Shown here one piece after another: positions 12,403-48,675 of a stretch of 64,000 nt of DNA. Location of the stretch: positions 34,658,001-34,722,000 of the forward strand of contig CM114271.1 of NCBI GenBank assembly GCA_050084515.1, given 5' to 3'. Under the pieces are notes generated by a model. The model was given only the letters and a program-made list of their open reading frames with translations, did no database searches and was not told the origin of the DNA. Each line of letters starts with the position of its first letter. The first letter of the stretch is position 1. The stretch is from Blasia pusilla (lineage: Eukaryota). A program made the position numbers and the translations under genes.

Positions 12403-12901
12403 TGTCAGGTCTTTTAGGATAGATCGGTGAGATCTAGTGGAGGACAGGCTCAGTAGGTCGAAGATGACCTGCTGAAGTCCCGAGAAACCAGAGAGAGCAG
12501 GTTTCCCCTTTGTTTCAGCTCATTTGGAGCCACATTGAGGAACTTACTATTTTAGGTAAGTACCATTATAAGTATGTGATCAACTTTCTATTTTTGGTTA
12601 GTGGCCCTTGACCTCCTACATCACGTCAAGAGCCAAGGAGGTGACTTGGGAGCATAGGTCACCATGAAGAGAGCTTGGGAGAGGGGAGGGGTATATCTCA
12701 AGGAGAGAGAGTTTGAGAGCTCATTCTCTTTTTGTTGAACCTCTTGGCATGAGGTGGTGGAGCTATGGTCTTGCTTGCCTTGTGTGTGCAACCCAAGCCT
12801 CTCATTAGGAGAATGGGTTTGGTTTGACATGGAGAGAGATATGTGAGAGTGCACACATATGAGAACTATGGTGTTGTGAGAGAAATTGGATCTTTATTTT
12901 A
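12403..12901 (+). repeat. Terminal repeat A1 of element copy 1
   Basis: Aligns by eye along its whole length to 20511-21029 and to 38890-39404. It has a ~20-bp deletion near its 5' end relative to those copies. Confidence 0.92.
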
Positions 12902-15890
12902 CAAAGAGAGAATGAGTGAGTGAGAGAGCTTCATGAGGGAGCTCGTTGGTTGCTCGATGTTTAGGGCAAGTTGGGGGACCGTGTTCCTGCTTCATGGCTC
13001 ATGGGAGTGCTCACCGGAGCAAGATCCGTGCGAGTTTGCTATTTTTCTTTGCTGATTTTTTGTACGGGATAGTGGCACGCGGAAGCGCAACCTAATTTTT
13101 TAAAGGAATTGAGTATGGGGGCGGATTACTCCATGCCGGTGCTCTCGGGAGCACCATGTAATTTTCTGATTTTTGTTGGGAAAAATCAGCGTAGAAGCGC
13201 TCCCAAATTTTGTGTAGGAGAACGAGACATTGGGCTTTACGACTGTCCCCGTCAATTTTTAATAGAATGTTCGATTCAAAATATTTTCACACCGTCGTAG
13301 ATCGTGAAGCTGTGCAATAAACGGTGCGCAATTTGGAGTTGCGAGCAAAAAGTTATGATCAATCTTGCCATTACTAGGCGATTTTTTGGGTTAAAAACCC
13401 TAAGCCAGCCGCCGCGCCGATGGCGGCCATCGCCGTCATACTCACCTTCAACAGTCTGCCATCAATGGTCAACCATCACCGTCAAAGGTCAACCGTCATT
13501 ATCAATGGTCCACCGTCCACCGCCCACCGTCGGCCACCGCCTAGCGCTGCATAGAGCCGCGTTCGGCCGTTGTCCACCCTTGGTTGCCATTGCCGCCATT
13601 ACGGAATGGAGGGTCTTCCACGACCACCATTGATTCTTTGACTTGCGCCACCACCATGTACTTTGGTTTGGCTGCCACCGTCATCGCAGTTTCGTCATCA
13701 ACTAGTGATGGCAGGCGACCTCGGGTTATAGTGTTTGAGTTTTTATTTCATGTTGCTATGTTGTGATTGGTAGCCGCTCGACGACGATCGAGTACTGTGT
13801 CGTGATGCCCGTAGCCGCAATGCGCCGCCGATTGCCGCGATGTGTCGCTTGTGGCCGCACTGCACCGTCTCGATCGCGGAGCCGCTCCTTCACTAAGGAG
13901 CAGAGCGTGTGAATTTCTGATTGAGGAGGGTATGTCGCTGAGTGCCGCACCCCATTCCCGAGTTCCGTGTCGTTTGTAGCCATTCCGTGTGGCCAGTGCC
14001 GCACCGGACCGCCGAACGTGCACCCCACATCGAGGAGGTTTGAGCAGCGTCAGTACGAGAGGAGTACGACTTGCTGATTGGAGGAGTTGTCTTCATGACC
14101 GAGTTGGGGTCGAGATTTGCAGTTTCCGAGAAACAACATTGACATTATTTTCAGGTTACCCATTCTGGTCTCTTACCCTGCACGTGTGAGGGATTTTCGG
14201 GTATTGGGAAGTTATTTGGGATATTGGGTTTCGTGTTGATGCTAGGAGCATCGATGATGTATGGTTTTAGGGGACATAGAACTGTGTGGGATGTCCAGAG
14301 TTGAGGATGGTTTGTCGATGAGACAATAGACCAGTTGATTTGCCGCACCACGATGCTTGTTGCCGCACAACACACGTCTTAGTGAGAGAGTGTAGATTGA
14401 GTGCCGCATGTTTAGTCTGAGTGATTGAGGGATTACTCGCAAGATTGAGAGTGATCATGTGAGAGGCACGAGGGCCATCATAGCGTCCTTTCAGGATTTT
14501 GAGAGGCGAGGTAGTGGACCTGAGAGTAGCTCTGGAGGGTTTACCAGGAATGGTATGAGGTTTCTAGGGTCTCCATGAGAGAGACCACCTCGATCTCCTT
14601 CTGTGTCATCTTCAAACGAGGGGGAGCATGTAGAGGAGTGTGTTAGTGATCCACCCTACACATTGAGTGGTCCTACCAGTTGGGCGTACGAGATGGACGA
14701 CATGGATAGAGGACCGCGTAGGTTTTCGGGTGCTGTAGGCACCATAGAGCTACAGCGAGTGCGACGATTCCTATTGTTGATGCTTATGAGGGGCATGTAT
14801 CGAGCATGTTGTTGGGGGCGGCCACCATTGTGTACCATGCTCCTTTATTTTCTGCTTCCGATGTTATGACATTGAGAGGTACGCCCACCGAGGTTTTTTG
14901 ACTGGCCGCTACGCTATGTGAGCGTGGAGTTGGAATTCCTGCATCACGTTCAGAGGTGATTGCAGAGGAGGTGATGGACTTGCCCTTGGAGCAGAAGCTC
15001 GGGCCGTCCACGTTAGATTTATGGCAAGTTGTGGCTACTAAGATGGCGGAGATGCCCGCTAGACCCGCGATAAAGCGTGCCATGGCTTCCCCTGGTGTTT
15101 TGTTGCTGGATAACCGGGGAGAGGTCTTTCAGTTGGTGAGTCCCAGAGGTAGAGCTTTTAGTCCACAACGTGTCTTGTTGGATTCAGGAGCGCAACCCCT
15201 AATGTTGGGGAAAGCGTCATTTAGAGGATTGGGCTTGGCGAGAGCCAATGTGGAGCATTGTCCATTTCGGATACAGACATCCTTGGGTGGATCGAGTACC
15301 ACAGAGTATATCACCCGATAGGAGATCGTGGTGAGGATTCGCCCGGGACATCCTACAGATGAGTCCATGGTGCGAGCCAAGGGGATAGTGACTGATGCAG
15401 AGTCCTACAACGTCTTGGTTGGTGGAGCAGTGTTATACCTGATGGGGTTTTCCCTGGATTACTGGGAGGATTCAACGTCCTAGAGACCAGGATGGCAGTC
15501 AGGTGATAGGCGCCTTAGCTCATTACCTGTTCGATTCACAGGTGCAGTGATCGAGCGACGGCCAGGAGAGATGGCGACCTTAGCAGCTTTAGAAGTGCCA
15601 TCACTTGGCCTAGTGATTTGATTGAGGGACATGTCCATGTAGAGGATACTCTTGTTCCTGACATTTCTATGGAGAGGAGTGTCATGGTAGCCGCATTAGT
15701 CCGTGGAGGAGAGGTGCCGCTTTGGGGCTCGACTGAGGAGCTTCGACGCTTAGCCACTGAGCATGTGCAGACCGCGTGGAGCGAGACGTTTGCATCAGAG
15801 TGTAACGGGTCAGAGGAACCTTAGGTAGGCAAGAGTGATGCTATGAGCCCTTTGGACACAACCGCGATTGTGTGGTGCATTCCAGAGGAG

Positions 15891-16830
15891 GGTATTCGGA
15901 TGTTGGATCTCTTTGGAGGGATCAACATTGGGTTAGCTGTTGTTTTGCACATTGGAATGTGCGTGCAACAATACCTGTATGTGGAGATTGATGATGTTGC
16001 GAGGCACACTTCACTTCACCATCTGGCGCTGTTCCGCCTCCATTTTCCCAACTTATTGTCTGCGTCCGCCATTCATGGTTACCAGAGTTCCCTATCGAGG
16101 GACATTTCATTGTTGGGGGAGCAAGACTTGGAGCGGATAGGGACCATAGACTTGCTCATTGCTGGTTGGCCATGTTAGGGCCAATCGAGTGTTGGACGAG
16201 GAAGCGGGTTAGCTGACACTCGGTCCAGGTTCTTTTGGGAGATGATGCAGATCTTGCAACATTTACAAGAGCATCAGCCTCGTTCTCCATCATACATTTT
16301 GGAGAATGTGCCAATTTTGGGTGATCCGAGGTCCCGCGTGGTGACGAGTGCACATCAGGTGCGGATTGGCCCGGCAGTGTTGTTAGATGCGGCAAGTGTA
16401 GGTTCTAGAGCACATCGCCCGCATCTTTGGTGGACCAACTTGATACGACATGAGGTGTTGCGGAGGGCTTATGCGAGAGTAGAGCGTCCCTCCGATTTGT
16501 TGGTGGATTCTATATTGGATCCGGGCCGTCGATCACAGGCAGTGAGACATGATGATCGACCGCCGTTGACTGTGATCAACACGATTGGCATGCCATGAGC
16601 AACCTTTCCCACATTGGTGACTTTTCCCGCTTCCTATGCATTCAAGGAGGCCGGACCTGGCTTGGTTTGGGATGACCACATACATAGGTTGGTGGAGCCC
16701 AATGCCGATGAGCGAGAGCGAGCAATGGGATTCCCCACAAGAGTGACGGCAGTATCGTCACTATCAGAGGCATCATGACGTTATATCTTGGATCAGGCGA
16801 TGGACCTTAACTGCTTGATATGGATTTTCA
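15891..16830 (+). pseudogene. DNMT3-like C5 cytosine DNA methyltransferase domain within the retroelement polyprotein (copy 1)
   Basis: All in one frame with stops. Motif I IRMLDLFGGINIG; II YVEID; IV IDLLIAGWPC(*=Q)GQS; FFWEMMQIL; VI YILENV; VIII LDAASVGSRAHRPHLWWTNL; IX ERERAMGFP; X RYILDQAM. Confidence 0.9.
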
Positions 16831-17239
16831 GCTTAGGAGTAGTTGAGCAACGTCATTTGAGGATGCAACAGATCACAAAATTTGTGTTGGTGAGCCCCAT
16901 TCCTACCGAGACGGTTGAGGCAATGGCTGGGGGCGAGACCCGAGGACATCGACACACCAGGGGTGATCGGGAAGAGACACCCTGGGACTTCTTGGGATTT
17001 TTTGCAGGTACGCAAGGAGATGATAGCCACAACATTGAGCGTGGTTCTGGGTACTACACGTGGAGATGAGAGTTCTATTTTCCGAGACGGGGTAGCACCA
17101 TAGCAACCACAGACATCTGCGCCGAAGAGTCCTACCGTAGTCACAATATGGAAGACTTGGGAGCCAGATATGGGCCCTAAGTTGACAGGAGGAGAGTGGC
17201 GTCAGATACACCAATTCCTTAGGAGTTATAGGAGTTGTT

Positions 17240-20200
17240 TTGCATTTAGTATGCATGATTTGGGTACGCTGAAGGGTCCAGGGATCCGCATTGAGTTGTC
17301 AAGTGACACGCCAATCTTCTGACAATCCTTCAGGTACAATGACATGGAGAGGGCTCTGATTTAGAGTAGGAGCCAAGACTTGGTTGGAGCAAGACTTGTG
17401 GAGATGTCACATGGAGAGTATGCATTTGCCACTATCATGCCCGGCAAGAAGGATGTGCATTGCAACTAGACGGATGGGCGGATGTGTGGAGATTACCAAC
17501 CTATCAATCGGCATACGAAGTTCGATAGGTATGCCATGCCCACCCTTTGATGCAATTGGGCAGCAAAGGACTTCAGTTCATTGGATTTGCGAGCCGGATA
17601 CCATCAGATGTCTATCTGATTGGTGGACAGGCAGAAGGCGGAATTTTGGGGCATCGATCCTCACGGGAAGGATTGTTTGTACCAGTGGCGGTTCTTACCA
17701 TTCAGGTTAAAGAACGCCCCGGCTGAGTTTCAGAGGGTCATGGATAGGATGTTGGCAGGTTTGGATTTTGCTTGGTATTTTATTGATGACATCGTAGTAT
17801 TTAGCGCCACAATTGAGGAGCATGAGCAACATCTAGAGGAGGTGTTTCGACGATTGCAGTTACATGGGTTGAAGCTACATCTAGGAAAGTGCAAGTTCTT
17901 CTACGGCTAGATTGCATATGATATACCTTGGGGGCCTTGGTATGCAATTAACGAAGGTAGAGGCTATTTCACGCATTCCACGTCCTACAGATGTGAGTCG
18001 AGTTCGTGCATTCATGGGATTGCCAAACTTCTATCGACGGTATGTCAAGGGTTTCAGTTCAATTGCGAAGCGGCTAACCTTGATGACCAAGGTGGATCAG
18101 GAGTGGCACTGGTAGAATCAGCAAGTAAGAGCATTTCAGATGCTCAAGGACATATTGATGTCCGCGTCTATATTGAGGAGACCGATCAGGGGGCGTCTTT
18201 TCCAGTTGCATACCGATTGGAGCATGTTGGGGCTTGGAGCCGTGCTCACCCAGCATGAAGATGATGGCAGAGAGTTTGTGGTGGCTTACGCTAGTCGCTC
18301 GAACAACGCTGCAGAGGTGAAGTATAGGTCATATGAGGGTGAGTGCTTGGCTGCAGTGTGGGCTGTCGCACATTTTAGATGTTATCTATTCGGCAATCCC
18401 TTTACCATCATTACTAATCATCAGCCACTTAAGTGGTTGATGGAGTCCGACAAGCTTACAGGGAAGTGTGCGAGGTGGGCTCTTTTGTTGCAGGAGTATG
18501 ACTTCCAAGTGGTGCATAGACCTCGGACGCTCAACCAGGATGGAGATGGTTTGAGTTGTAGCCCATGCCAGAGTCAGCGAGATGCGACTGGAGCTCGTTG
18601 GCATGATGAGAGTGATGAGGAGTTGGTGCGAGGATGGCATGCCTTAGCCTATTTGGGCTTGTTGGCTATGGAGAGCCAAATTGCTAAGACTTCGATGGCG
18701 AGGTCTGATGGAGAGTCCTTAGATCTAGAGGCCGGTGAGGAGACGACAGGTGGCCAAGACATTCACGACGATGGAGTGGTCTTGGAGTACTTGCGTATTG
18801 GCAGCGTCGCGAGCACATTGGGTGCTAGAGAGCGGGATTGGATCCTACAGCGAGCCAGATGGTTCCGGTGGGAGGGCACATATGTGTTGCGAGTATGGGA
18901 GGATAGTAGAGTGTGTGTAGTGCCTCATCCTTTGCAGAGAGCACGTTTGGTGCGTCATGCCTACAAGGAGTTGGATCATTTTGGAGTGAAGCGGACGTAC
19001 AACTTGCTCCTAATTCAGTACTAGTGGCAAGGCATGCAGACTGACATTCAACAGTATGTTGCCAGATGCATGGTGTGTGATCGAGTTCGAGCATCATTCA
19101 ATGCTCCGACTCTAGAATTGCATCCACTTCCGATCATGGGCTTAGGTTATAGATGGAGTTTGGATTTTGCAAGTTCTTTGCCTTTGACGGAGCGCCATAG
19201 TCGTTATGTGTTGGTGATGGTCGAACACTTCTTAAAGTGGATAGAGTTATTTGCATTGCCTGACAAAGCGAGTGAGGGAGTAGCGTATGCCTTCCTAGAT
19301 GGAGTGTTGAGTCATTACGGTGCACCAGCTGAGGTGTTGACACACCAGGGTACAGAGTTCCGTGGGGAGTTTCAAGCCTTGTGTGATTAGGCACTAATCG
19401 ACCACTGCACTACTTTGAGAGATCATCCTGAGGCAGATGGACTAGCGGAGCGGGTTGTGCACACAGTGAAGAGAGGACTGCGTAAGTATGGCTTGCAGAG
19501 AGGTCATCTAGGAGATTGGGACCTTCAGTTGCCGTGGTTGGCGATGGGATACAGATTCAGCAGTCATGCGTCCTTAGCGTCTTTCTCACCGTATTTTTTG
19601 CTTTATGGCCGAGAGCCACATTTACCTACGGCCATTCGTTGAGATGTTGGTGAGGTGTTGAAACTTTATGACCTTGATGTATGGATGCGAGCATGTTCTC
19701 AGAGGGCTATGTTGTTTTGGAGAGTGATGCCCATGGCGTTTGAGAACTTGGCGATTGCGCAACATCGGGATACGTTGAGGTATGCGACTATTCGGGGAGA
19801 TGGTTATCGACCTACTATCCGGAGGTTTCATTAGGAAGACTATGTCTACTTGCATTAGACGGCACCCACGACTTTAGATGTGACTGTAGGACGCACAATC
19901 TTGAGAGTGCGTGAGGTTTTTCCATCCGGTGTTCTCTTATTGGAGGGACGCAATGGTATGGTTTGGAAGGACCATGTGCGTAAGTATGCGCCATATCATC
20001 TTCCGAACATTGACAGTATAGTTGATTTGAGCTTAGCAATAGTTTCTGCAGGCTTGCGGTGTATATTGTGTGGTTCTGCCCGTTGTGCAGCCACTATGCT
20101 GGTCTGTGATGGATATTGGAGAGGATGGCATATGGCATGTTTGACGCCACCTCTCACTAAGGTTCCTCAGGGATGATGGATGTGTCCCAGATGTACATAG
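17240..20200 (+). pseudogene. RT-RNase H-integrase-PHD portion of pol (copy 1), disrupted
   Basis: ORF fragments 17620-17910 (RT), 18140-19024 (RNase H, INT zinc-binding), 19034-19642 (INT core) and 19880-20176 (PHD). Domain order RT-RH-INT is the Gypsy order. Confidence 0.92.
20060..20194 (+). other. PHD finger at the integrase C-terminus
   Basis: CILCGSARCAATMLVCDG(Y<C)WRGWHMACLTPPLTKVPQG(*)WMCPRC matches the Cys4-His-Cys3 PHD consensus. Confidence 0.88.
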
Positions 20201-20380
20201 AGTAGGTAGTTCTACATTCCGACTTGTATCTGTGATATGGATGACAAGAAGGCAACTAACAATGGGGCCACATGAGCACCTGGCCTTCTTGCTCTTAGCG
20301 TCCGAGAGATGTATGTCATGGTAGGTAGGGATAGATGGCTATCTGGAGTTAGAGGGACCTAACCACTAGCTAAGGGGGCG

Positions 20381-20508
20381 ATTGGAGATATTTTGGTACT
20401 TCTCGTCTCGTTTTTTGGATGCCATGAGTTAGCATGGGATCGTGCGTGTTTGTGTGTGTGTTTGGTGACAGCGATGTATATTGTGTAGCGATGTGTATGC
20501 ACACGATA
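20381..20508 (+). repeat. Repeat B1 (128 bp), preceded by a polypurine-tract-like AAGGGGG (20372-20378)
   Basis: ATTGGAGATATTTTGGTACTTC...GTGTATGCACACGATA aligns to 21029-21156. Confidence 0.9.
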
Positions 20509-20510
20509 AC

Positions 20511-21029
20511 TGTCACGTCTTTTAGGATAGATCGGTGAGATCTAGTAGAGCGCCTTAATGAGTAGTTGAGGACAGGCTTAGTAGGTTGAGGATGACCTAC
20601 TGAGGCCCCGGGAAACTTGAGAGAACAGGTTTCCCCTTCGTTTTGGCTCATTTGGAGCCATATTGAGGAACTTACTATTTTAGGTAAGAACCACTTTGAG
20701 TATATGATCGACTTTATATTTTTGGTAAGTGTCCCTTGACCTCCTACATCACGTCAAGAGCCAAGGAGGTGACTTGTGAGCATAGGTTACCATGGAAAGA
20801 GCTTGGGAGAGGGGAGGGACATACCTCAAGGAGAGAGAGCTTGAGAGCTCATTCTCTTTTTTTTGAACCTCTTGGCATGAGACGGCGGAGCTATGGTCTT
20901 GATTGCCTTGTGCGTGTAACCCAAGCCTCTCATTAGGAGAGTGGGTTTGGTTTGACATTGAGAGAGACACGTGAGAGTGCACACATGTGAGAACTATGGT
21001 GTTGTGAGAGAGATTGGATCTTTATTTTA
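20511..21029 (+). repeat. Repeat A2
   Basis: TGTCACGTCTTTTAGGATAGATCGG...GGATCTTTATTTTA is a direct repeat of 12403-12901. Confidence 0.92.
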
Positions 21030-21156
21030 TTGGAAATATTTTGGCACTTCTTGTCTCGTTGTTTGGATGCCATGAGTTAGTATGGGATCGTGCGTGTTTG
21101 TATGTGTGTTCGGTGACAGCGATGTATGTTGTGTAGCGATGTGTATGCGCACGACA
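21029..21156 (+). repeat. Terminal repeat B2 (128 bp)
   Basis: ATTGGAAATATTTTGGCACTTC...GTGTATGCGCACGACA is a direct repeat of B1 and is followed by the AAGG TSD. Confidence 0.9.
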
Positions 21157-21599
21157 AAGGAAATTCATATTAATGACAACCTTTGACATGTAATTACCCT
21201 GTGACTTATGGCTTAACGAATCCCCAAAACTCTTAATTGACCTTAAAAATTCCGATCAATTTTGAAGAATCTTATTGGCTGAAAGATTAAGCAATGTTAT
21301 TAGCTAAGAGGGCCAATTGTCAAAAGCCAAAAGGAGAGATGCTCGGAAATCAAATGGGCACTCTCCAATAATAATACAAATTATCAATGGTTTCATATTC
21401 ACAAAACTTTCTTCATAAGAAATCATGTGATTTACACTTGTAAATTGATATACTTATATCACTAATGGTACTTGGGCTCTCAACTCTATGATATTTCCCA
21501 TGATATAACTCATAGCCAACCCATTCTCATCACTATAGTAATAATCCACATAATTTCATTGTGAAAGAACTTCACGTCTTATGCCTTGAAGTAATCCTT

Positions 21600-23865: not shown

Positions 23866-24011
23866 AATAAGATTCTTCCTTTTAATTCATTATTCCACAA
23901 GTTACATGTGCTCTCTTCCCAAGTTTGGAATCATTTTTAATAAGATTCTTCCTTTTAATTCATTATTCCACAAGTTACAGGTGCTCTCTTCCCAAGTTTG
24001 GAATCATTTTT
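23866..24011. repeat. Tandem duplication of a ~73-bp unit (2 copies)
   Basis: AATAAGATTCTTCCTTTTAATTCATTATTCCACAAGTTAC...GGAATCATTTTT occurs twice, near-identical. Confidence 0.85.
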
Positions 24012-37731: not shown

Positions 37732-38889
37732 GATCCATCTTGTTTCTATTTTTTGTTGTCTATATCGTGCACAAAGTTATCACTACATAATCTACATCAC
37801 TAGTTATACCCACACTATACATAGTGTCAATCGTCCTACCATATGGAAAGAATCTTACACACATATGTACATCAAGACAAAAAATATAATGGTATCTCAA
37901 CATTTGAGCAATGTCTTTCTAAATGTTTTTAATACTTATCGATTATTGAATATCCCAACTCTAAATCATTGATCGACCAATAATATAATGGTATTTTCAA
38001 CAGTGGAAGATTGCCTTTCAAACTTTTATTCCAACACTCGTCCATGACAAAATATCCTAACACTAAATAAAAAATCAACCAATAATGTTATTTCCAACAC
38101 TACTATAGTGTCAATTCAACATATTTTTGCCATTGGACTATTTTTTAAAGGGATCTTGTGAGATCCAATAAAATAATCACACTCAAACCATTTTTTATTT
38201 TTAAGGTGTTTAATTTGAAACCCTAATACTAATACAAGTTAAATGCAATTAATATGCATATTATTCTAAATTTGTTGTGAGTTAAATTACCAAACAAGGA
38301 AAGATAAGGTATGCGATAGATCTCACCAATGTATTTTGCTTTGGTGGACAAATAAACTTAGTCTAGCATCATCATATATCCTACATCATCAAAATTCACA
38401 AGACCTATAATAAATGAAAAAACAATGATATGTAAAAGTATATCGATAGAAAATTATATTTCTTTCAAGGACGAAAAATATTAGATACTCACAATAATTT
38501 TAAAAAATACTTATATCAATGATATGAGTACAATTTTTTTAAGATTACCTAAAAGCTCAAAAAATCTTGAAATTTTGGGAAATCCTAATTTTGATTATAC
38601 CCTAGTTTATAATTTGGACGTGTTTAAGAAAAATTGGTCATTCTCTTGAAAATTTTGGATTGTATAAATTTACGTAGGGATGTTACTTGTCTTAGTCACT
38701 ATATATATATGGAGCAAGGAGTAATAAATTTCAATGTCACGAGTTATGATATTCCTTCTAATATCTTCATGTTTGCAAATGAATAGTTTACAATCTACAA
38801 GTTTAGTTAGTTTATTGGAAGGTCTATTTTCATAGGGTTTTGGCAAGGCAAGCTCCCGCCTTGATTTATTTCCCATAGAAGAAGTAATC

Positions 38890-41800
38890 TGTCACGTCTT
38901 TTAGGATAGATCGATGAGATTTCGTAGAGCGTCTTTGCGAGTAGTGGAGGACACGCTTAGGAGGTTGAGGATGACTTGCTGAGGCCCCAGGAAATGTAAG
39001 AGAGCATGTTTCCCATTCGTTTCGGCTCATTTGGAGCCATATTGAGGAACTTAATATTTTAGGTAAGTATCATTTTGAGTATATGGTTAAATTTGTATTT
39101 TTGGTAAGTTTACCTTGACCTCCTACATCAGGTCAAGAGCCAAGGAGGTGACTTGGGAGCATAGGTTACCATGGAGAGAGCTTGGGAGAGGGGAGGGGTA
39201 TACCTCAAGGAGAGAGAGCTTGAGACCTCATTCTCTCTTTGTTGAACCTCTTGGCACGAGGCGACGAAACCATGGTCCCTTGTCTTGTGAGTGTAACCCA
39301 AGCCTCTCATTTGGAGAGTGGGTTTGGTTTGACATGGAGAGAGATATGTGAGAGTGCACACATTTGAGAGCTATGGTGTTTGAGAGAGATTGGATCTAGA
39401 TTTACAAAGAGAGAATGAGATGAGTGAGAGAGCTTCATGGGGGAGCTTGCTAGTCATTCGCTGGTTTTGTAGGTTGGGGATTGTATTTCCCATTTAACGG
39501 TTCATGGGAGTGCTCACCGAAGCCGGAGCCGGAGCCGGAGCCGCTCATTTTTTATGTTTCCTTTGCCGATTTTTCGTGTGGAAGAATGGCGCGTAGAAGC
39601 GCTGCCAAATTTTTGATAGGGATTGAGTATGGGTGCGAATTTCTCCATGTTGGTGCTCTCAAGAGCACCATGTAGCTTATTGATTTGTGTTTTCACAGGT
39701 TTTACAATTTTGTTGGGCGAAATCAGCGCGGAAGCGCTGCCAAATTTTGTGTAGGAGAAAGAGACATTGGGCTTTACGACAATCCCCTTCAGTTTTTACT
39801 GGAATGTCCGATTCAAAATATGTTTTGATATTGTTGTAGATTGTGAAGTTGTGCAGGCTGTGCAATAGACGGTGTGCAATTTGGAGTTGCAAGGAAAAAG
39901 TTGTGGTCATTCTTGCAAAACTGCCATTGCTAGGCGATTTTTAGGGTTAAATTGTTCAAACCCTAAACCAGCCGCCGCGCCGGCGTCGACTGTCGCCGTC
40001 ATAATCACTGTCAATGATCCACCATCAATGGTCAACCATTGCCATTGACGGTCAACCATCACCATCAACGGTCAACCGTCACCGTCAACGGTTCACCGTC
40101 CACCATCGGTCGCCGCCGCCGCCTACTACTTCTCAGATCCGCATTCGGCCGTTGTCCACCCTTGGTTGCCATTGCCACCATTGCGGAGTGGAGGGTCTTC
40201 CAAGATGACCGTTGATTTTCTGACTTGCGCCGCCACCACGTACTTTGTTTTGGCCGCCATCGTCATCATAGTTTCGTCATCAACCAGTGATGGCAGGTGA
40301 CCTCGGGTTATGGTGTTTGAGTTTTCATTTCACGCTGCTATGTTGTGATTGGTAGCCGCTCGATGATGATCAAGTACCATGCCGTGACACCCGTACCCGC
40401 AACGCGCCGCCGATTGCCGTGCCGTGTCGCTCGTGGCCGCACCGCACTGTCTCGATCGCGGGGCCGCTCCTTCACTAAGGAGCACAGCGTGGGAATTTCT
40501 GATTGAGTACGGTATGCCGCCGAGTGCCGCACCCCATTTTATCGAGTGCCATGCCGTTCTGTAGCCGTTTTGTGCCGCCAGTGCCGCACCGTACCGCTGG
40601 ATCCGCACCGCACATTGAGGAGGTTTGAGCAACGTCAGTATAAGAGGAGTACAACTTGCTGATTGGAGGAGTTGTCTTCACGACCAAGTTGGGGTCGAGA
40701 TTTTCAGTTACCGAGGAGCGACATTGACATTATTGTCAGGTCATCCATTCTGGTCTCTTACCCTGCACGTCTGAGGGATTTTCGGGTATTGGGAAGTTAT
40801 TTGGGTTATTGGGTTTCGTGTTGATGTTGAGAGCATCGATGATGTATGAGTTTAGGGGACATAGACCTATGTGGGATGTCCAGAATTGAGGATGGTTTGT
40901 CGATGAGATTATATATCAGTTGATTTTCTGCACCACGCCGCTTGTTGCCGCACAGCACTCGTCTCAGTGAGAGGGTGTAGCTTGAGTGCCGCATGCTAGA
41001 TTGAGTGATTGCGTGATTACTCGCGAGGTTGAGAATGATCGTGTGAGGGGGGCACGCGGGTCATCATGGCATCCTTTCAGGACTTTGAGAGGCGAGGTGG
41101 TTGACCAAAGAGTAGCTCTAGAGGGTTTACGCAGAGTGGCCTGAGGTTTGGAGGGTCTCCACGTGCGGGACCTCCTCGACCTCCTTCTGTGTCATCTTCA
41201 GACGAGGAGGAGGGCGTAGAGGAGTTGAGTAGTGCTTTGCCACTCACATTGAGTAATCCTACTCCTTGGGCATACAAGATGGACAATTGGGGTAGAGGAC
41301 CACGTAGGTTCTCACGTGCAGTAGGCATGATAGAGTTACACGACTTCATTGCGGAGTTTAGGAGTTGGTGCGACTCACAGCGGGCTAGGAACTCTAGAGA
41401 GTTCAACCTGTTTACAACATGGAACAATATGTTCCAATATTTAGAGGGGGCACCCATGGACGATTACCATGAGTTCTCCCACAGATATGCCCAAGAGATT
41501 GAGGCATGGCGACTCTACTATGACCCATATTATGTGTCATGGACGGAGCCGTTCCCAAATGAGGAGGAGGATTCAGGAGAGGCTACTTCCTCTTCCATTA
41601 GTGATGTTTTAGGAAGGGTAACTCGCATTGGAGCAATTGCTCCATCCAGTTGGGTTCGTCCTAAGTTTAACCTCGTGGTTGAGTTCTTTGTTGGGTTGAG
41701 GGCGAGCTAGCAGGAGGTACGGACGGAGAAGTTGCGGAGTATCCATGACTTCTAGAGGCGCTCGGGTGAGAGTTTGCACGAGGCTTACACTCGCTTGCGC

Positions 41801-44800
41801 GGGTTGATCAACGTCACTCAGGGGATGATAGAGACTCAGGCTATCCAGTCATGGTACGCGATGCTGGACCGGACTGTGCGGATACGGGTGCGGGAGGGGG
41901 TACTTCTTATGAACACCTCACCTACGTTGAGAAATTTTTCTAGGACTGCCGAGAACATTGAGCGCAACATGGCGGATGAGAGCGTAGCCACCATGGGTTC
42001 TAGGCGAGAGCAGTCATGATTGCCTACACCACCAGTGCAGCAACGTGGACTCTAAGATAGGTCGACTGTGGCATCACGAGCTCAGGGAGGATACCGGGAG
42101 GCCATGCCATAGAGATCTGCTTCTTCATATGCGGCTCAGCAGCAGCCGTCTACGATTACTTGTCGGTCATCAAGTGGAGCCCATCATCAGCGCGATTGCA
42201 CTCTTCAGAATCATGGACGTGTGCCTCAACATGGAGGAAGAGATGGTGGTGCACTAGGAGGTTATTAGTATGACTATTGTCAGAGGTATGGTCACACACG
42301 CGCCAAGTGTTTCAGTTTACATCCTGAGTTACATCCGGACTGAGGGCCAGAGAGGGTACGAGAGCAAGTAGCCGATCCGGGTGGGCCTAGCTAGAGGTTG
42401 TGTACCACGTGGTCCCGTTGGGGAACGAGGAGCTGGAGTTGCCCGACAAGGTGGTGGAGTTGCCCGTGGAGGAGGTAGAGTCCCACCACCTAGACGCGTC
42501 GAGGGAGACGCCACGTGTGAGGCTAGGATGGCTGCTCAGATACAATAGCTACAGGAGCAGATTACCTCTATGGCATTGAAGTTACCCGATGCCGGATCCT
42601 TGGCATCAACAACATATGGAGCAGCCAAAGATATGAAGGATCCTAGTTGGATGTGCAGGGTTGCCCAGATGGAGGCCGCCGTAGTTGTGACGTATGGAGC
42701 AACTTTAGAGTTGGATCCACAGCGAGGGGAAGCTAGGAAACAAACTAGGCTTCCTCAATCTTTCACGTTGTCTGAGGCGTTGAGGACCTCATCGATGGGT
42801 TCTGATCAGAGTTCCCGGAGAGTTGGTGATGTTATTGGTATGCAGGCACAAAGGGCAATGGGAGAAACGAGTGCGACGAGTCCTATTGCTGATGCTCAGG
42901 AGGACCATGTCTCAAGTACGATGTTGGGGACGGCCACTATGGTGTAACGTGTTGTGCTATTTTCTGCTTCCGATGTTATGACATTGGGAGGTACGCCCAC
43001 CGAGGTGTTTTGGCTGGCCGCTACGCCATGTGAGTGTGGAGTTGGAGTTCCTACATCACGTTCAGAGGTGATTGCAGAGGAGGTGATGGACCTGCCCTTC
43101 GAGCTGATTCTTGGGCCGTCCACGTCACATTCATGGCAGGCTATGGCTGCTAGGATGGCGGAGATGCCCACTAGACCCGCGATAGAGCATGCCATGGCTT
43201 CTCCTGGTGTTGTGTTGCTGGATAACTGGGTAGAGGTCTTCCAGTTGGTGAGTCCACAAGATAGAGCTTTTAGTCCGCAACGCGTCTTGTTAGATTCAGG
43301 AGCGCAAATGATGTTGGGGAAAGCGTCATTCAGAGGATTGGGCTTGAGGAGAGCCAATGTGGAGCGTTGTCCATTTCGGATATAGACATCCTTGGGTGGA
43401 GTGAGTACCACCCAGTATATCACCCGATACGAGGTCGTGGTGAGGATTCGCCGGGGACATCCTACAGATGAGTCTATGGTGCGAGCCAAGGCGATAGTGA
43501 CTGATGCAGAGTCCTACGACGTCTTTGTTGGTGGAGTAGTGTTATACCCGATGGGGTTTTCCTTGGATTATTGGGAGGAGTCAACGTCCTACACACCTGG
43601 ATGGCAATCAAGTGATGGGCGGCTTAGCTCATTACCCATTCGATTCAAAGATGCAGTGATCGAGCAACGGCCATGAGAGATGGCGACCTTAGCACCATTT
43701 AGCACTGCCATCACTTGGCCTAGTGATTTGATTGAGGGACATGTCCATTCAGAGGATACTCCCATTTGTGACATTTTTATGGAGAGGAGTGTCATGGTTG
43801 TTGCATTAGTCTGTGGAGGAGAGGTGCCGCTTTGGGGCTCGACTGAGGAGCTTCAATGCTTAGCCACTGAGCATGTGCAGACCGCGTGGAGCGAGACGTT
43901 TGCATCAGAATGTGACGGGTCAGAGGAACCCTAGGTAGCCATGAGTGCTGCTATGACCCCTTTAGATACCATCTCGATTGTGTGGTGCATCCCAGAGGAG
44001 GGTATTCGGGTGTTGGATCTCTTTGGAGGGATCAATACTGGGTTAGCTGTTGTTTTGCAGGCTAGAGTGGGCGTGCAACAGTTCCTGTATGTGGAGATTG
44101 ATGATGTTGCGAGGCGCACTTCACTTCACCATGTGGCGTAGTTACGCCTTTTTTTTTCCCGACTTGTTGTTTGCGTCCGCCATTGGGGATTACCGGAGTT
44201 CCCTACCAAGGGACATTTCATTGTTGGGGGCGTAGGATTTGGAGCGGGTAGGAACCATATATTTGGTCATTTTTGTTGGCTGTGTTAGGGGCAATCGAGT
44301 ATTGGACGAGGTAGCGGGTTGGTTGTCACTCAATCTAGGTTGTTTTGGGAGATGATGCGGATCTTGCAACACTTGCAAGAGCATAAGTCCTGTTCTCCAG
44401 CATACATTCTGGAGAATGTGCCGATTTTGGGCAATTCGAGGTCCCGCGTGGTGACGAGTGCACATTAGGTATGCGCATGGATCGGCCTGGCAGTGTTGTT
44501 AGATGCGGCGATTGTAGGGTCTAGAGCACACCGCCCGCGTCTTTGGTGGACCAATTTGGTACCACACGAGGTGTTGCGGAGGGTATATGCAAGAGTGGAG
44601 CGCCCCTCCGATTTGTTGGTGGATTCTATATTGGATCCGGTCCATCAATCATAGGCAGTGAGGCACGATGATCGATTGCCATTGACTATGGTCAACAGGA
44701 TTGGCATGCCATGGGCAGCCTTTCCCACATTGCTGAGCTTTCTCGCTTCCTATCCATTCAAGGCGGCCGGACCTGACTTGGTTTGGGATGACCAAGTACA

Positions 44801-46025
44801 GAGGTTGGTGGAGCCCAACGCCGATGAGCGAGAGCGAGCGATGGGATTCCCCACAGGAGTGACGACAATACAGTCACTATCAAAGGCATCTTGACGTCAT
44901 GTCTTCGGTCAGGCGATGGACCAGAATTGCTTGATGTGGATTTTCAGCTTAGGAGTAGCTGAGCAATGTTGTTTGAGGATGCAACAGATCACAGCATTTG
45001 CGTTGGTGAGCCCCATGCCTACCGATTGAGACAGTTGAGGCAATGGTTGGGGGCGAGACCTAAGGAGATTGACACACCAAGGATGATTGGGAGAGACACC
45101 CTTGGACTTCTTGGGATGTTTTGCAGGTACGTTAGAAGATGGTAGCCACAACATCGAGCGTGGTTCCGGGTACTCCAAATGGAGATCCGATTTTGTAGTT
45201 GGCTGTAGGGGAGCAATCGAGTTTTGTTGTTCGAGACGGGGTTGCACCATAGCAACCACCGACACCCGCGCTGTTATAGGAGCTATTTTGCATTTAGTAT
45301 GCATGATCTGGGTACGCTAAAGGGTCCAGGGATCCGCATTGAATTGTCGAGTGACACGCCGATCTTCCGACGATCCTATAGGTACAGTGACATGGAGAGG
45401 GCTTTGATTCAGAGTAGGAGCCAACACTTGGTTGGAGTAGGACTAGTGGAGATGTCGCATGGAGAGTATGCCACTGTCATGCCCGCCAAGAAGGATGTGC
45501 ATGGCAACTAGACGGATAAGTGGATGTGTGGAGATTATTGACCTATCAATTGGTAGACGAAGTCCGATAGGTATGCCATGCCCACCCCTGAGGATATCTT
45601 TAATGCTATTGGGCATGCAAAGGTTTTCAGTTTGTTGGATCTTCGAGCCGTATACCATCAACTGCCCATCAGATTGGAGGACGGGCAGAAGACGGCATTT
45701 TGGGGCATCGATCCTCACGGGAAAGATTGTTTGTACGAATGGTGGTTCTTACCATTTTTGGGTTAAAGAATGCCCCGGATGAGTTTCAGCATAAGATCTT
45801 GGCAAAGGGTCATGGATAGGATCTTGGCAGGTCTAGATTTTGCTAGGTGTTATATTGATGACATCGTAGTCTTTAGCGCCATGGTTGAGGAGCATGAGCA
45901 GTATCTAGAGGAGGTGTTTCGATGATTGCAGTTTCATGGACTAAAGCTACATCCAAGCAAGTGCAAGTTTTTCTACGACCAGATTGAGTACTTAGGTCAT
46001 ACGATATACCCAGAGGGCCTTGGGT
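38890..46025 (+). mobile_element. Ty3/Gypsy-type methyltransferase retroelement, copy 2 (3'-truncated within RT)
   Basis: Starts TGTCACG, with repeat A at 38890-39404 and the same leader as copy 1. Gag at 41189-42560 includes a degenerate zinc knuckle, (C>Y)DYCQRYGHTRAKC, at ~42270-42310. PR VLLDSGA, MTase 44000-44950, RT YIDD at 45851-45862. Homology stops at ~46025. Confidence 0.9.
44000..44950 (+). pseudogene. DNMT3-like C5 methyltransferase domain (copy 2)
   Basis: IRVLDLFGGINTGLAVVLQARVGVQQFLYVEID; YILENV; LDAAIVGSRAHRPRLWWTNL; ERERAMGFPTG; RHVFGQAM. The PC motif region is degraded by indels. Confidence 0.88.
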
Positions 46026-48675
46026 ATATCATTTTCCCTTCTTGTCAAATATGAATTAAGGCACGAATCCTAATTTTTTGGTTATTTTCTAGAATTCTCC
46101 CATCTTATTATCACTTACGATCACGTATTATAATCAAAATTAATTAAATTAGTATTTATTAATTTATTAATTAAATTCCACCCAAATTTTTTCTTTCTAC
46201 CCATCTAATATGACTCAAATAAAAAAAATCAATTTTGACTTACTATTCCACTATTTTGTCATATTTTACTTGTAGGGTCGCCCATTACAATATATATTTC
46301 GCCGAAAGATACAAAGAAGCATCCCATGAATCGTTATAGTAAATCAAATCCGCCAATGTAGGCATTAACATTTACTCACATATTGAAGTGTTGTTGTGAG
46401 GACTCAAACTAGGCCAAATATCTATCTATAACAATTGTAGACCACTCTTCAAGAACAACAACTACAAACAAAAGATCGATAGGGTGACTCAAATCTACCT
46501 TTGCATGTTAAAACAATTTCGCCCGGAGACCCCATAATGCATCCCATGAATTGTTCTATTAATTCAATTCCACCAATGATATTATACTCAAATATGAGTA
46601 TTGACACTATACTCAAATATTGGAAGTGTCATTGTGAGGACTCATTTGAGGCCAGATACCTATCTATAACTATTGTAGATCACTTTTCCGTCAAATATCG
46701 ACTCAACTCCTCACTTCCCAACACAAGCAGGTCCTTCAAGACTTGGGATAGACTTCCTTGATAGTCTAGGAATCTAAAATGGTGCTAGTACGCATAGTGG
46801 TCCCAACTACCCAATAGACCTCGAAGAAGTCTCTAATCGAGACTCAATATTTGAGTGACCGATCAAGGTCCAATGTTAGTGACATAACTAGCCCACATGG
46901 ACTTGGCTTGGTGTGCATCCCTGAAGCTAATCTCTCTATTCATCTCTTGCTTTTGGTTCATCCCCCACATGGTTCTCCAAGGTGGGATTGAGGTTCCAAA
47001 CATCTTGGAAGATCCTCCCCCTTTTTATATAGTTCTAGACATCCCCACCTCCTCCCTGCCTTTAGGAAAATCCTCTTGGGCCACTCCTTGTGGCCTCAAC
47101 CCAACTATCATTCAGATAGTTTTGGATGGTGTCTAGATCTCTACTCATGCATTTTTCTAGATCTTTCATGTTTTGGAATCGTTCTCTCACAAACTTTCCA
47201 ACTCACCCTAGACTTGGAACTTGATTTTGCATTTGAGGATTCTTGATATTAAAGTCATAATGGCTAGATCCAAGATGCATTTGGGATGCCCCGTGATCGG
47301 TCTCCTCAATATGGGCGTAGACGTCAATCTGTCCTTGAACAACTAAAATGCTCTCTCATGCTCATCCTCCTAGTGCCACTCCTGACCCACCTTGGTCAAC
47401 AAGAGTAGCGGCTTAGCAACGAGTAGATGTTGTTTAAATTTTATGGAAGGGTAAAATTATTTAGGGGATTGGGATATCATTTAAATTTCAATTGAAGAGT
47501 CGAATGTTATTACACTTCTAAGGTTAAAGAACATAGAAATTTTATTTAAATCTTGAAATTAATAATATGATTATTTTTAAACTAATCATGATACTTCATG
47601 TATGATATTTAGTGAAAGGAAAATAAATTTGAATGGAAAATAAAAATAATTTCATAAATCAAAATGAACTAAAAATTTAATTAATGAATTTTATTTTGGT
47701 GAGGAAAATGGAAGATATTTTTCTAACTTTTACGGTGGAAGGAAATTATGTAGAGGAGTTGGGTATTAATTAAAAATTTTAAAAATTTTTAAATTTTTTT
47801 TGAAAATTATTAAAAAAATTTAAAATTTAAAAATTCACGGCCACTACATGTCAGAGTGGTTTGATGTCCCTCTTCCTTGTGGGTCTACCTCATTTTTTCT
47901 TATGAGCTCACTGCGGGTATTCAGGTGTCCATAGATGTGGCGTGTACGTTGGTTAGCCGTTCAATGTTAGATCTCTCACCTGACCTATTTCGTGTTTGAC
48001 ACATTTGGAGGCTATCCATCTTGACCGCCTGACGCGACATAATGTAAATTGAAGCTCCAAGTCTTTCCTTGGTTCTTGTTAGTCTACATTCGTGTCGACC
48101 TGGGTTATGGAGCATGCCACAATTGTCGAGGTCTGCTATGGAGTGTGCTACAATTGCTACCCATATCACACTCACCTCTCTTTTTCCATCTCGCATTCAA
48201 AATTCCAGTGTAACGGTGATCTACCTATAGTGCTACTACTTCCGACCTACTTCGGCTGGTTCTTCTTATTTTGGTACGCTCTAGTTCAAGGATTTTCTGT
48301 AATTTTTAGTCTTTTTCTTCTCCTTTTTCCTTATGCACTAACGTAGCCTACATGTGCATTCGTCTTTGGCAGTTTCAAGCGCACTACACATTCATTCTCG
48401 TCCTTGTTCTCTCACAGGTACCAATAGATCCTCAAATTTTATCCATGAAGCTTCACTTCTTTTTAGTTTGTGCTATAAGTCCACAAGTTTGGAACCCTCA
48501 AATAGGGACTTAGAACCTAGCAACAAGGATTTTTTGAATGACGCATAAGTTGTTGAGAGTTCTATGTATGCACTACGTGGTCTGGAGGTAAGTGTTGTTG
48601 CAATTTTGGATGACTAGAGAGGAAGAGGAATTGGGACATAACGACACATAATTTTAGAATCGGTCCCTCATTTAC

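Follow-up and report, generated by a model that had tools for sequence, protein, structure and literature searches.

A decayed Gypsy-DNMT3 type retrotransposon of Blasia pusilla with a PHD finger as the conserved end of its integrase: a candidate tether to H3K4-unmethylated chromatin

The window, i.e., the whole stretch of 64,000 nucleotides of Blasia pusilla DNA analysed here, contains at 12403-21157 a Ty3/gypsy-type retrotransposon in one decayed copy, which belongs to the streptophyte Gypsy-DNMT3 kind (Table 1). Its domain order is (gag)-protease-DNMT3-like domain-RT-RNase H-integrase-PHD, and its flanks are formed by split direct repeats in the arrangement A...B-A-B. The protease piece was named for its D-S-G motif, which we take to be typical of retropepsins; a Pfam search of this piece gave no match, and in full relatives (P0284, P0264) an Asp_protease_2 domain is situated directly ahead of the DNMT. 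Residues 3-373 of the relative P0130 align by tblastn to 15900-17009, i.e., to the DNMT domain, which is interrupted by a stop immediately after the catalytic Pro-Cys, and the frame that runs from 17900 through RNase H, integrase, and PHD contains seven premature stops in total. The pol of close relatives likewise stops 1-15 residues past the finger.

Table 1. Features of the retrotransposon copy and of a second, truncated copy of the same family in the window
Feature	Position	Strand	Evidence and remarks
Direct repeat A, left copy (LTR-like)	12403..12901	+	starts TGTCA; identity 87% to 20511-21029, 88% to 38889-39403
Probable retropepsin (protease) piece	14902..15321	+	frame 1; LLDSGA in translation
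DNMT3-like C5 cytosine methyltransferase domain	15825..17009	+	frame 3; PF00145 42.2 bits
Reverse transcriptase	17125..17919	+	frame 1; RVT_1 74.1 bits; tblastn of P0130
RNase H	18110..18499	+	frame 2; RT_RNaseH 115.3 bits, residues 100-200; RT_RNaseH_2 residues 71-170 (read-through from 17900)
Integrase zinc-binding H2C2 domain and DDE core	18935..19414	+	frame 2; Integrase_H2C2 45.8 bits, rve 34.6 bits
Integrase C-terminal SH3-like barrel and 18-residue linker	19800..20059	+	frame 2; alignment with relatives
PHD finger	20060..20194	+	PF00628 32.2 bits; alignment with 166 relatives
TAG, end of pol frame	20198..20200	+	one codon past the PHD finger
Direct repeat B, first copy	20381..20509	+	92% identity to 21029-21157
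Direct repeat A, right copy	20511..21029	+	
Direct repeat B, second copy; end of the element	21029..21157	+	
Second family copy, truncated	38889..46023	+	blastn identity 81-88%; tblastn of P0130

The copy at 12403-21157 is an inactive relic and therefore targets nothing now. RNA reads with the same species label (two raw-read runs) span the element from end to end in sense orientation, the bin of the PHD included; only 1 of 5452 and 4 of 6126 of them, respectively, are at least 99% like the copy of the window. Beyond 21399, the read depth of the DNA runs drops from tens of thousands to at most 10, depth values at the element not being equivalent to copy numbers. The sequence adjoining the element (...CACAAGG ahead of A; ...CACGACAAAGG/AAATTC past B) is ambiguous as a target-site duplication. 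The second copy of the family comprises repeat A, the 5' part, DNMT (44010-44951), and RT (45287-46021); RNase H, integrase, and PHD are all absent from it.

The codons for the zinc ligands of the PHD finger lie at 20060-62 (C1), 20069-71 (C2), 20105-07 (C3), 20114-16 (fourth position), 20129-31 (His), 20138-40 (C5), 20183-85 (C6), and 20192-94 (C7). The fourth position is occupied by Tyr (TAT), which leaves seven of the eight ligands, and an in-frame TGA is found at 20174-76 in the last loop; the motif of the window is therefore C3-Y-H-C3 plus a stop rather than C4HC3. The initial annotation had described a C4HC3 motif ending the pol frame, and while its place at the end of pol holds, this copy does not possess it intact. 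The PF00628 check proposed at that time succeeds on the broken copy itself, with 32.2 bits (E 1.1e-7; Pfam cutoff 24) on a piece of 113 aa, which is well beyond chance even given about a thousand such pieces (64 kb in six frames, by our own estimate). PF00628 still scores 27.6 bits inside a single read-through of 767 aa with RT_RNaseH, Integrase_H2C2, and rve in the same frame, such that the PHD is in frame with the integrase. It is the last domain of the latter, joined by a short and poorly conserved linker to the SH3-like C-terminal domain, and occupies the place at which chromoviruses carry their chromodomain, just as had been proposed; a Chromo family is found neither among the Pfam matches of the window's pol (E up to 0.1) nor in 27 relatives scanned with Pfam.

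The finger is a trait of the family. Among the 240 relatives listed, 196 possess a PHD according to phmmer; of the 44 others, 37 stop less than 45 residues past the last aligned C-terminal residue, one lacks the C-terminal part, and six run on. With the 37 and the one set aside as too short to be judged, 202 relatives remain, of which 196 have the PHD; neither a PHD out of frame with the integrase nor its absence from most copies, which the initial annotation had named as refuting, is observed. PF00628 is likewise carried by 118 of the 120 longer matches listed, with scores of 33-47 bits in relatives. The 198 PHD domain matches divide into 177 with all eight ligands, 14 that are cut short, and seven in which a ligand is replaced (177/184 complete fingers thus have all eight), and the ligands are invariant in 39/39 aligned sequences. 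With a mean pairwise identity of 0.49, the PHD is conserved as much as the catalytic core of the integrase (0.54), the values for the SH3-like part and the linker being 0.44 and 0.29. That the motif might match by chance or belong to a fragment of an adjoining host gene has nothing in its favour except the broken finger of this copy; this reading, whose probability is practically negligible, is refuted by the common frame with the integrase, the position within the element's repeats, the score above the Pfam cutoff, and the presence in nearly all judgeable relatives.

Concerning the distribution of the family, it comprises proteins of liverworts, mosses, Klebsormidium, and volvocine algae together with many metagenome contigs, and two domain orders. 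The best named relatives of the copy in the window are liverwort proteins (Calypogeia, Marchantia, Riccia; 74-81% identity), and Klebsormidium proteins share 46-50% identity with it. In a FastTree analysis of 167 integrase-PHD rows, the window is placed in a clade of 55 rows (SH-like support 100) together with the K. nitens proteins P0010 and P0036, both of which have rve and PHD and are placed by the integrase-PHD part alone.

The PHD fold is present as judged on the AF2 model of the relative P0028, not on the broken copy of the window. In this model, pLDDT is 82-90 across the finger and 82-87 across the SH3-like part, a five-strand barrel that Foldseek matches to the integrases of PFV and Ty3; confidence in the entire model is low (mean pLDDT 69.1, pTM 0.38). 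The modelled finger differs from solved PHD fingers by an rmsd of 0.4-1.6 Å and superposes on ATXR5-H3 (1.6 Å, 51 columns) and BHC80 (1.0 Å, 47 columns), as well as on BAZ2A with an unmodified H3K4 peptide and on the UHRF1 PHD with unmodified H3.

A methylation writer in the same pol as the PHD had also been claimed, and this is confirmed by the PF00145 match (42.2 bits) and by the solved structures most similar to the domain in the window, i.e., DNMT3A/B/C (E 2e-9; best bacterial enzyme 4e-3, DRM2 0.08). With the integrase-PHD part as a seed, a DNMT-like domain is found in 70 of the 240 relatives listed, and only three are demonstrably without it; P0174, P0221, and P0226 have a PHD without any DNMT. 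Conversely, a HMMER search seeded with the DNMT finds the PHD in 38 of 40 judgeable polyproteins; it supersedes a DNMT-seeded word search with the PHD in 5/5 matches, which is weak evidence. All 58 full DNMT segments retain their catalytic Cys and the EN of motif VI; a pseudo-enzyme with motifs IV and VI lost had been considered and was rejected, since the alignment shows the catalytic Cys in all 58. In the clade of the window, the DNMT precedes RT, and in the other clade it follows RNase H and precedes the integrase. The pairing of reader and writer put forward in the initial annotation therefore stands insofar as both belong to one polyprotein and are a family trait. In the element of the window, RT, RNase H, and integrase lie between them, and that the two act as one unit after cleavage by the protease is at most a possibility. 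We know of no allosteric link between the element's PHD and its DNMT.

Which state of the histone tail the finger might read is suggested by its nearest solved relatives and by single residues. The best PDB sequence matches of the finger are CHD4 PHD1/2, PHF21A/BHC80, KDM5A/B PHD1, ATXR5, KMT2C/D, and PHF12, and further ones are DPF3, BAZ2A/B, KAT6A, AIRE, and UHRF1, the last being a reader of H3R2; BPTF, ING, and TAF3 are not found among the best 60. BHC80, AIRE, CHD4, and DPF3 are described as binders of unmodified H3K4, with CHD4 PHD2 favouring H3K9me3/ac and DPF3 reading K14ac, and H3K4me0 fingers are characterized there by the lack of an aromatic cage, by acidic residues ahead of the first Cys, and by a hydrophobic residue ahead of the third Cys (PMC3241642). 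A hydrophobic residue precedes the third Cys in 176/178 intact fingers of the family (Leu 119, Phe 26, Val 12, Ile 12, Met 5, Tyr 2), and Val does so in the window. Two positions before the His, at what we take to be the position of the cage Trp in BPTF and ING2, 167 of the 178 have Gly and two an aromatic residue; on this placing of the cage position, the aromatic cage is, as far as can be judged from the alignment, missing from the family. At least one Asp or Glu is found in the six residues ahead of the first Cys in 122/178 fingers and none in the remaining 56. In the closest subgroup of the window, the residues there are AGL and then R or K, without an acidic cluster, such that one defining feature of H3K4me0 readers is lacking in this subgroup. 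Taken together, these traits of the sequence indicate an H3 tail unmodified at K4 (K4me0) as the ligand rather than K4me3.

The reading we prefer, to which we assign a probability of roughly 0.6, is that the locus holds one decayed copy of the Gypsy-DNMT3 kind with the PHD as the conserved end of its integrase, and that in live members of the family the finger tethers the integrase to H3K4-unmethylated chromatin. By analogy with chromoviruses, tethering is the most likely function, the finger taking over the role that the chromodomain has there. In live members, the finger would bind the N-terminal tail of H3 with Lys4 unmethylated, and, once bound, would keep integrase and cDNA at such nucleosomes, so that new copies would land away from active promoters marked by H3K4me3, e.g., in chromatin poor in genes or rich in repeats. 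Methylation of the cDNA or of the new copy would be the task of the polyprotein's DNMT3-like domain, a role already proposed for the Klebsormidium elements. The window contains only two insertions of the family, both in a transposon-rich stretch, a setting that is explained equally well by selection after insertion. Further points against the preferred reading are the lack of the acidic cluster in the subgroup of the window, the additional features read by some of the best PDB matches, the inactivity of the copy, the scarcity of RNA reads closely matching it, and the low overall confidence of the AF2 model.

A different task for the same H3K4me0 reading would be to serve the methyltransferase. 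DNMT3A and DNMT3L are listed among the readers of unmodified H3K4 (PMC3241642), and in like manner the finger might license or recruit the element's own DNMT3-like domain, such that methylation would occur only on unmarked chromatin and the choice of insertion sites would not be its main job. This would agree with the joint occurrence of PHD and DNMT in nearly all judgeable relatives, whichever domain is the seed, and in both domain orders, in the second of which (DNMT between RNase H and integrase) DNMT, integrase, and PHD adjoin. We nevertheless regard it as rather unlikely: the finger is an ordinary single PHD and not an ADD, it is always found on the end of the integrase and never fused to the DNMT, it is separated from the latter by RT, RNase H, and integrase in the clade of the window, and it is kept without a DNMT in P0174, P0221, and P0226. 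Processing by the protease, as we assume from other Ty3/gypsy elements, probably parts the two domains and likewise counts against this role.

The residues of the finger bear on two further readings. A zinc module for a partner other than H3 (a host protein, nucleic acid, or a part of the intasome), resembling the readers by shared fold only, would agree with the missing acidic patch in the subgroup of the window; a few PHD fingers do bind non-histone proteins (PMC3241642), and the published remarks on PHD fingers in algal transposons are, in the passages concerned, guesses only (PMC9940879, PMC8557442). It is quite improbable in view of the retained residues of the H3-binding face, i.e., the hydrophobic residue ahead of the third Cys, the Asp after it, and the P-x-G-x-W turn ahead of the seventh ligand, and of an identity of 36-47% to H3-bound fingers, which is high for so small a domain. 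Reading of H3K4me3 or another methyl-lysine, by which insertion would be steered to active promoters, is very improbable. Such reading is common among PHD fingers (PMC3241642), and a conserved aromatic residue adjoins the His (Trp in 123, Tyr in 47 of 178); an aromatic residue at this site is, however, also present in BHC80, CHD4, and KDM5 PHD1, the position two before the His is held by Gly almost throughout (167/178), and no known K4me3 reader is among the best 60 PDB sequence matches.

Gypsy elements with a DNMT have been published before, as have PHD fingers in transposons of the green lineage. Among the papers searched, none mentions a PHD finger for the Gypsy-DNMT3 kind; the main text of the 2018 paper on the Klebsormidium elements (PMC5890265) has 0 mentions of PHD, and one may be drawn in its Fig. 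4c. It puts the capture of the DNMT "in the K. nitens lineage", and the spread found here exceeds that stated there. A more far-reaching proposal, which we consider possible but doubtful, is that PHD and DNMT3-like domain form an old, obligate pair of reader and writer of a green-lineage Ty3/gypsy clade, from chlorophytes to liverworts, kept through at least one reshuffling of the domain order: with the finger, the pre-integration complex would be docked at nucleosomes unmethylated at H3K4, after which the new copy would be methylated by the DNMT3 that the element itself encodes. Such a pair would parallel, on a transposon, the animal ADD-DNMT3 logic and would be much older and wider than the single capture in the Klebsormidium lineage described in 2018. 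If the finger does tether the integrase to H3K4-unmethylated nucleosomes, these elements would represent, besides those with chromodomains, a second natural way in which histone state guides a retrotransposon, and three activities, i.e., reading chromatin, integrating, and methylating DNA, would be united in one polyprotein. The interplay of DNMT-bearing transposons with the host epigenome would then become directly testable, as would the age of the association of H3K4me0 reading with DNMT3-type methylation.

The organization of the element is similar to that reported for KnitGypsy-Dnmt3 of Klebsormidium nitens (de Mendoza et al. 2018, PMC5890265), the name "streptophyte Gypsy-DNMT3" being that of a preprint (10.64898/2026.05.21.726589): both possess the Ty3/gypsy set of domains, a DNMT3-type domain inside pol, and direct repeats of the pattern A-coding-B-A-B, "as in DIRS" according to the legend of Fig. 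4c, and in the tree the integrase-PHD part of the window groups with two K. nitens proteins containing rve and PHD (clade of 55 rows, support 100). It differs in that the nearest named relatives of the copy in the window are liverwort proteins. PHD fingers in green-algal transposons are described in PMC9940879 and PMC8557442 (cf. Perez-Alegre 2005, as cited there), among them Gypsy-7a_cRei of Chlamydomonas, a green-lineage Gypsy element that also carries a PHD inside the Gag-Pol polyprotein. Compared by description only, Gypsy-7a_cRei is unlike the element of the window in that its description there makes no mention of a DNMT; its legend puts the PHD before INT, and the place of the PHD may therefore differ. 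The "Chlamyvir" clade was dropped as a carrier of a PHD, as a chromodomain is given for it in the relevant part of PMC3350952.

As a domain, the finger resembles BHC80/PHF21A, CHD4, KDM5A/B PHD1, ATXR5, BAZ2A/B, and AIRE (36-47% identity over 45-51 columns, rmsd 1.0-1.6 Å), and it shares with H3K4me0 readers the lack of a cage Trp, the hydrophobic residue ahead of the third Cys, and the Asp after it, whereas the subgroup of the window has little or no acidic cluster ahead of the first Cys and the carrier is an integrase, not a chromatin enzyme. With the ADD of DNMT3A and DNMT3L (PMC3241642), the element has in common that a reader, here a predicted one, of unmodified H3K4 and a DNMT3-type catalytic domain belong to one gene product; the reader of the window is, however, a plain PHD on the integrase, far from the DNMT. 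Chromoviruses carry a chromodomain at the C-terminus of the integrase, by which their insertion is guided into heterochromatin (Gao et al. 2008, cited in PMC6673714 and 10.1101/2021.11.30.470311). The element of the window equals them in possessing a small histone-reader domain after the C-terminal domain of the integrase, with a presumed role in tethering; the domain is a PHD finger instead of a chromodomain, and its likely ligand is the unmodified N-terminus of H3 rather than H3K9me.

The PHD finger translates as C-x2-C-x11-C-x2-Y-x4-H-x2-C-x11-stop-x2-C-x2-C and is followed by a Thr and by the TAG at 20198-20200 that closes the pol frame. In Pfam, PF00628 (PHD) scores 32.2 bits on a 113-residue piece (cutoff 24, E 1.1e-7) and 27.6 bits within a 767-residue read-through starting at 17900, which shares its frame with the finger and contains RT_RNaseH (115.3 bits), Integrase_H2C2 (45.8 bits) and rve (34.6 bits). 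The finger is therefore real, in frame with the integrase, and the last part of pol, which confirms the initial annotation in its observation of a PHD finger at this end of the frame. Two lesions break the finger in this copy, the Tyr at the fourth ligand position and a TGA within its last loop. Premature stops number seven in the common frame of RNase H, integrase, and PHD, and the element is a dead, liverwort-type copy of an already known kind. Directly upstream of the linker (around 19985-20015), 88 of 178 relatives exhibit H-x3-C-A-P-C-H and 111 of 178 C-x2-C-H, with Tyr at both Cys positions in the window's copy; this motif may form a further, third zinc site in front of the finger, comparable to the pre-PHD of UHRF1.

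Features of the element and of its surroundings (positions in the window)
Feature	Positions	Strand	Remarks
Direct repeat A	12403-12901 and 20511-21029	+	87% identity
Protease-like piece	14902-15321	+	LLDSGA in translation; frame differs from that of the finger
C5 DNA methyltransferase domain	15825-17009	+	PF00145, 42.2 bits; frame differs from that of the finger
RT	17125-17919	+	frame differs from that of the finger
PHD finger	20060-20194	+	
Direct repeat B	20381-20509 and 21029-21157	+	92% identity
Second family copy, truncated	38889-46023	+	repeat A, DNMT, RT; 81-88% identity
PIF1-like helicase frame	51188-52126	+	68.7 bits
Ty1/copia RT (RVT_2)	59317-60498	-	194.4 bits
Copia-type gag	62069-62761	+	119.2 bits

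The positions of the repeats give the layout A-coding-B-A-B; the left A is not followed by a copy of B, neither in the element nor in the second family copy. The methyltransferase domain has a stop directly past the catalytic Pro-Cys, and its closest solved relatives are DNMT3A/B/C (E 2e-9 to 2.6e-7, versus 4e-3 for the best bacterial enzyme and 0.08 for plant DRM2), such that sequence comparison places it in the DNMT3 type. The second copy ends at around 46023, past RT, and lacks RNase H, integrase, and PHD; moreover, 135 bases of its RNase H region lie in inverted orientation at 47285-47419, and both features suggest that this copy was rearranged or interrupted. The stretch as a whole is a transposon nest. 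Downstream of the element, the AT-rich flank contains, at 23866-24000, a pair of direct repeats of 62 bases each that share 98% of their letters and are separated by 73 bases.

Concerning relatives, the integrase-PHD part with stops as X matched 258 proteins of near length and 204 longer ones (E up to 1e-3), 120 of each being listed. Among the matches listed, identity to the window's copy is 74-81% in the liverworts Calypogeia fissa, Marchantia polymorpha, and Riccia sorocarpa, 58% in the moss Sphagnum fallax, 46-50% in Klebsormidium nitens, and 42-47% in the volvocine and chlamydomonad algae Pleodorina, Tetrabaena, and Chlamydomonas eustigma. PF00628 is precomputed in 118 of the 120 longer matches listed, and phmmer finds the finger in 196 of the 240 listed relatives. 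The 44 without it comprise 37 that end less than 45 residues past the last aligned C-terminal residue, one without the C-terminal part, and six that continue, several of these with a frameshifted finger. The finger is thus neither out of the integrase frame nor missing from most copies, being present in 196 of the 202 relatives that extend far enough to be judged. A finger HMM yields 198 domains (all eight ligands in 177, shortened in 14, a ligand replaced in 7), and in an alignment of 39 sequences the eight ligands and the Gly two before the His are all invariant. Across 4000 random pairs, the finger reaches a mean pairwise identity of 0.49, compared with 0.54 in the catalytic core, 0.44 in the SH3-like domain, and 0.29 in the linker. 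The replaced ligand is Tyr in six of the seven relatives (P0004, P0012, P0021, P0027, P0033, P0072), the same type of lesion as at 20114-20116 in the window; the changes to Tyr correspond to G:C to A:T transitions, the kind that the decay of methylated cytosines in silenced copies would be expected to produce.

Two DNA and two RNA runs under one species label were matched to the window at a likeness of at least 85%. One DNA contig differs at 1 of 254 bases of the unique 3' flank, which shows the organism to be the right one. Contig pieces inside the element number 221,108 and 30,793 in the two DNA runs, with almost none in the flanks; the family is therefore abundant, these depths not being copy numbers. 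RNA reads (5452 and 6126) cover the whole element, the first mate lying overwhelmingly on the minus strand, the orientation that sense-strand RNA gives in most stranded libraries; the PHD bin (20075-20405) exhibits the same bias (137 and 230 reads versus 9 and 5). The family is transcribed, and since only 1 of the 5452 and 4 of the 6126 reads are at least 99% like the window's copy, the transcripts come from other copies. Past 20004, 69 and 72 reads depart from the window's sequence, and their continuations, translated in frame by eye, give linker residues of the relatives.

Concerning the pairing of the finger with METHYLTRANSFERASE, the DNMT-like domain of the relative P0130 matches 70 of the 240 listed proteins. 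Among the relatives (P0121-P0390), two domain orders are found: DNMT-RT-RNase H-integrase-PHD, the window's own, preceded in full relatives such as P0284 by a gag zinc knuckle and a protease, and RT-RNase H-DNMT-integrase-PHD, followed by a tail of 120-350 residues. Most members of the second order have Glu for Pro in the catalytic Pro-Cys (GWECQDLS). A FastTree built from 167 integrase-PHD rows places the window's copy in a 55-row clade (SH-like support 100) that contains Calypogeia and both K. nitens proteins; all its judgeable DNMT-bearing members possess the first order, most of its proteins beginning too near RT to show whether a DNMT precedes it, and the second order is found in the remainder of the tree. 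In the reverse direction, the window's DNMT piece, run in a full HMMER search, gave 2077 representatives (E up to 1e-3); among the best 150, the finger is present in 38 of the 40 polyproteins reaching far enough past the integrase, the exceptions being P0298 and P0310, and a word-based search found it in 5 of 5. All 58 full DNMT segments retain the catalytic Cys of motif IV together with the Glu-Asn of motif VI. No chromodomain was found in the 27 relatives scanned. P0310 continues for 397 residues past the C-terminal part of the integrase without a PHD, and its match to a Tudor-like domain is weak and falls below the cutoff (PF21743, 21.8 bits, cutoff 27.2); here one reader domain may have replaced another.

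Compared with PDB sequences, the finger of an intact relative best matches CHD4 PHD1/2 (E 3.5e-17) and PHF21A/BHC80 (4e-13), further top matches being KDM5A/B PHD1, ATXR5, KMT2C/D, PHF12, DPF3, BAZ2A/B, KAT6A, UHRF1, and AIRE. For the relative P0028, the AF2 model has a mean pLDDT of 69.1 and is weak as a whole, but it is confident in the SH3-like barrel (82-87) and in the finger (82-90). With barrel and finger together, Foldseek finds the PFV and Ty3 integrases and the Tudor-PHD pairs of PHF1 and UHRF1; with the finger alone, ATXR5-H3 (rmsd 1.6 A, 41% identity), BHC80 (1.0 A, 47%), BAZ2A with unmodified H3K4 peptide, DPF2/3, and UHRF1 with unmodified H3. The review by Musselman and Kutateladze (PMC3241642) counts BHC80, AIRE, CHD4, and DPF3 among the readers of unmodified H3K4; as their hallmarks it names a missing aromatic cage, acidic residues ahead of the first Cys, and, preceding the third Cys, a hydrophobic residue wedged between Arg2 and Lys4. 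Among 178 intact family fingers, the hydrophobic residue is found in 176, and 122 have at least one acidic residue among the six preceding the first Cys; since the window's closest subgroup has AGL and then R or K in place of these acidic residues, this hallmark appears only partly developed in the family. The initial annotation had proposed a histone reader and a DNA methylation writer in one polyprotein; this interpretation is partly supported and is here refined to a predicted, likely reader of the H3K4me0 type.

The main rival is that the finger acts on behalf of the DNMT, much as an ADD domain does. In favour of this alternative, the two tightly co-occur; against it, the finger is constantly attached to the integrase, lies far from the DNMT in the window's clade, and is kept by the only three of the 240 listed proteins demonstrably without any DNMT (P0174, P0221, P0226). 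This alternative is rather unlikely. Binding of a non-histone partner is less probable again. That the finger reads methyl-lysine is very improbable: the position two before the His, which we take to be that of the cage Trp in BPTF and ING2, holds Gly in 167 of the 178 intact fingers and an aromatic residue in 2.

Gypsy elements with a DNMT are already published (PMC5890265), and a preprint names them streptophyte Gypsy-DNMT3 (10.64898/2026.05.21.726589). PMC9940879, its preprint, and PMC8557442 call PHD "a common accessory domain" of Chlamydomonas transposons and describe, for Gypsy-7a_cRei, a PHD within Gag-Pol and a hint of intergenic preference; a survey of 172 eukaryote genomes gives PHD and Chromo as the chromatin domains most frequently fused to transposon domains (10.1101/2021.11.30.470311). 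PHD fingers are also mentioned for retrotransposons in PMC6673714 and for Ginger1 transposases in PMC2836005. The literature search found no paper naming the PHD of Gypsy-DNMT3 elements or the PHD-DNMT pairing, and "PHD" has 0 occurrences in the main text and one supplement of the 2018 paper (PMC5890265). What goes further than the publications found is that PHD and DNMT3 are paired almost universally in both domain orders and that this pairing extends from chlorophytes as far as liverworts.

Taking up the anatomy, the conservation, and the class of the finger as established by sequence and fold, the proposed H3K4me0 reader would tether the integrase to nucleosomes with an H3 tail unmethylated at K4 and would steer insertions away from active promoters, like the chromodomain in chromoviruses, and the DNMT3-like domain would methylate the cDNA or the new copy, as proposed in 2018 for the Klebsormidium elements. 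The repeat arrangement is the same as in KnitGypsy-Dnmt3 (de Mendoza et al., PMC5890265), and split direct repeats A...B-A-B are likewise found in DIRS/PAT-like elements; here they surround an element that encodes a DDE integrase.
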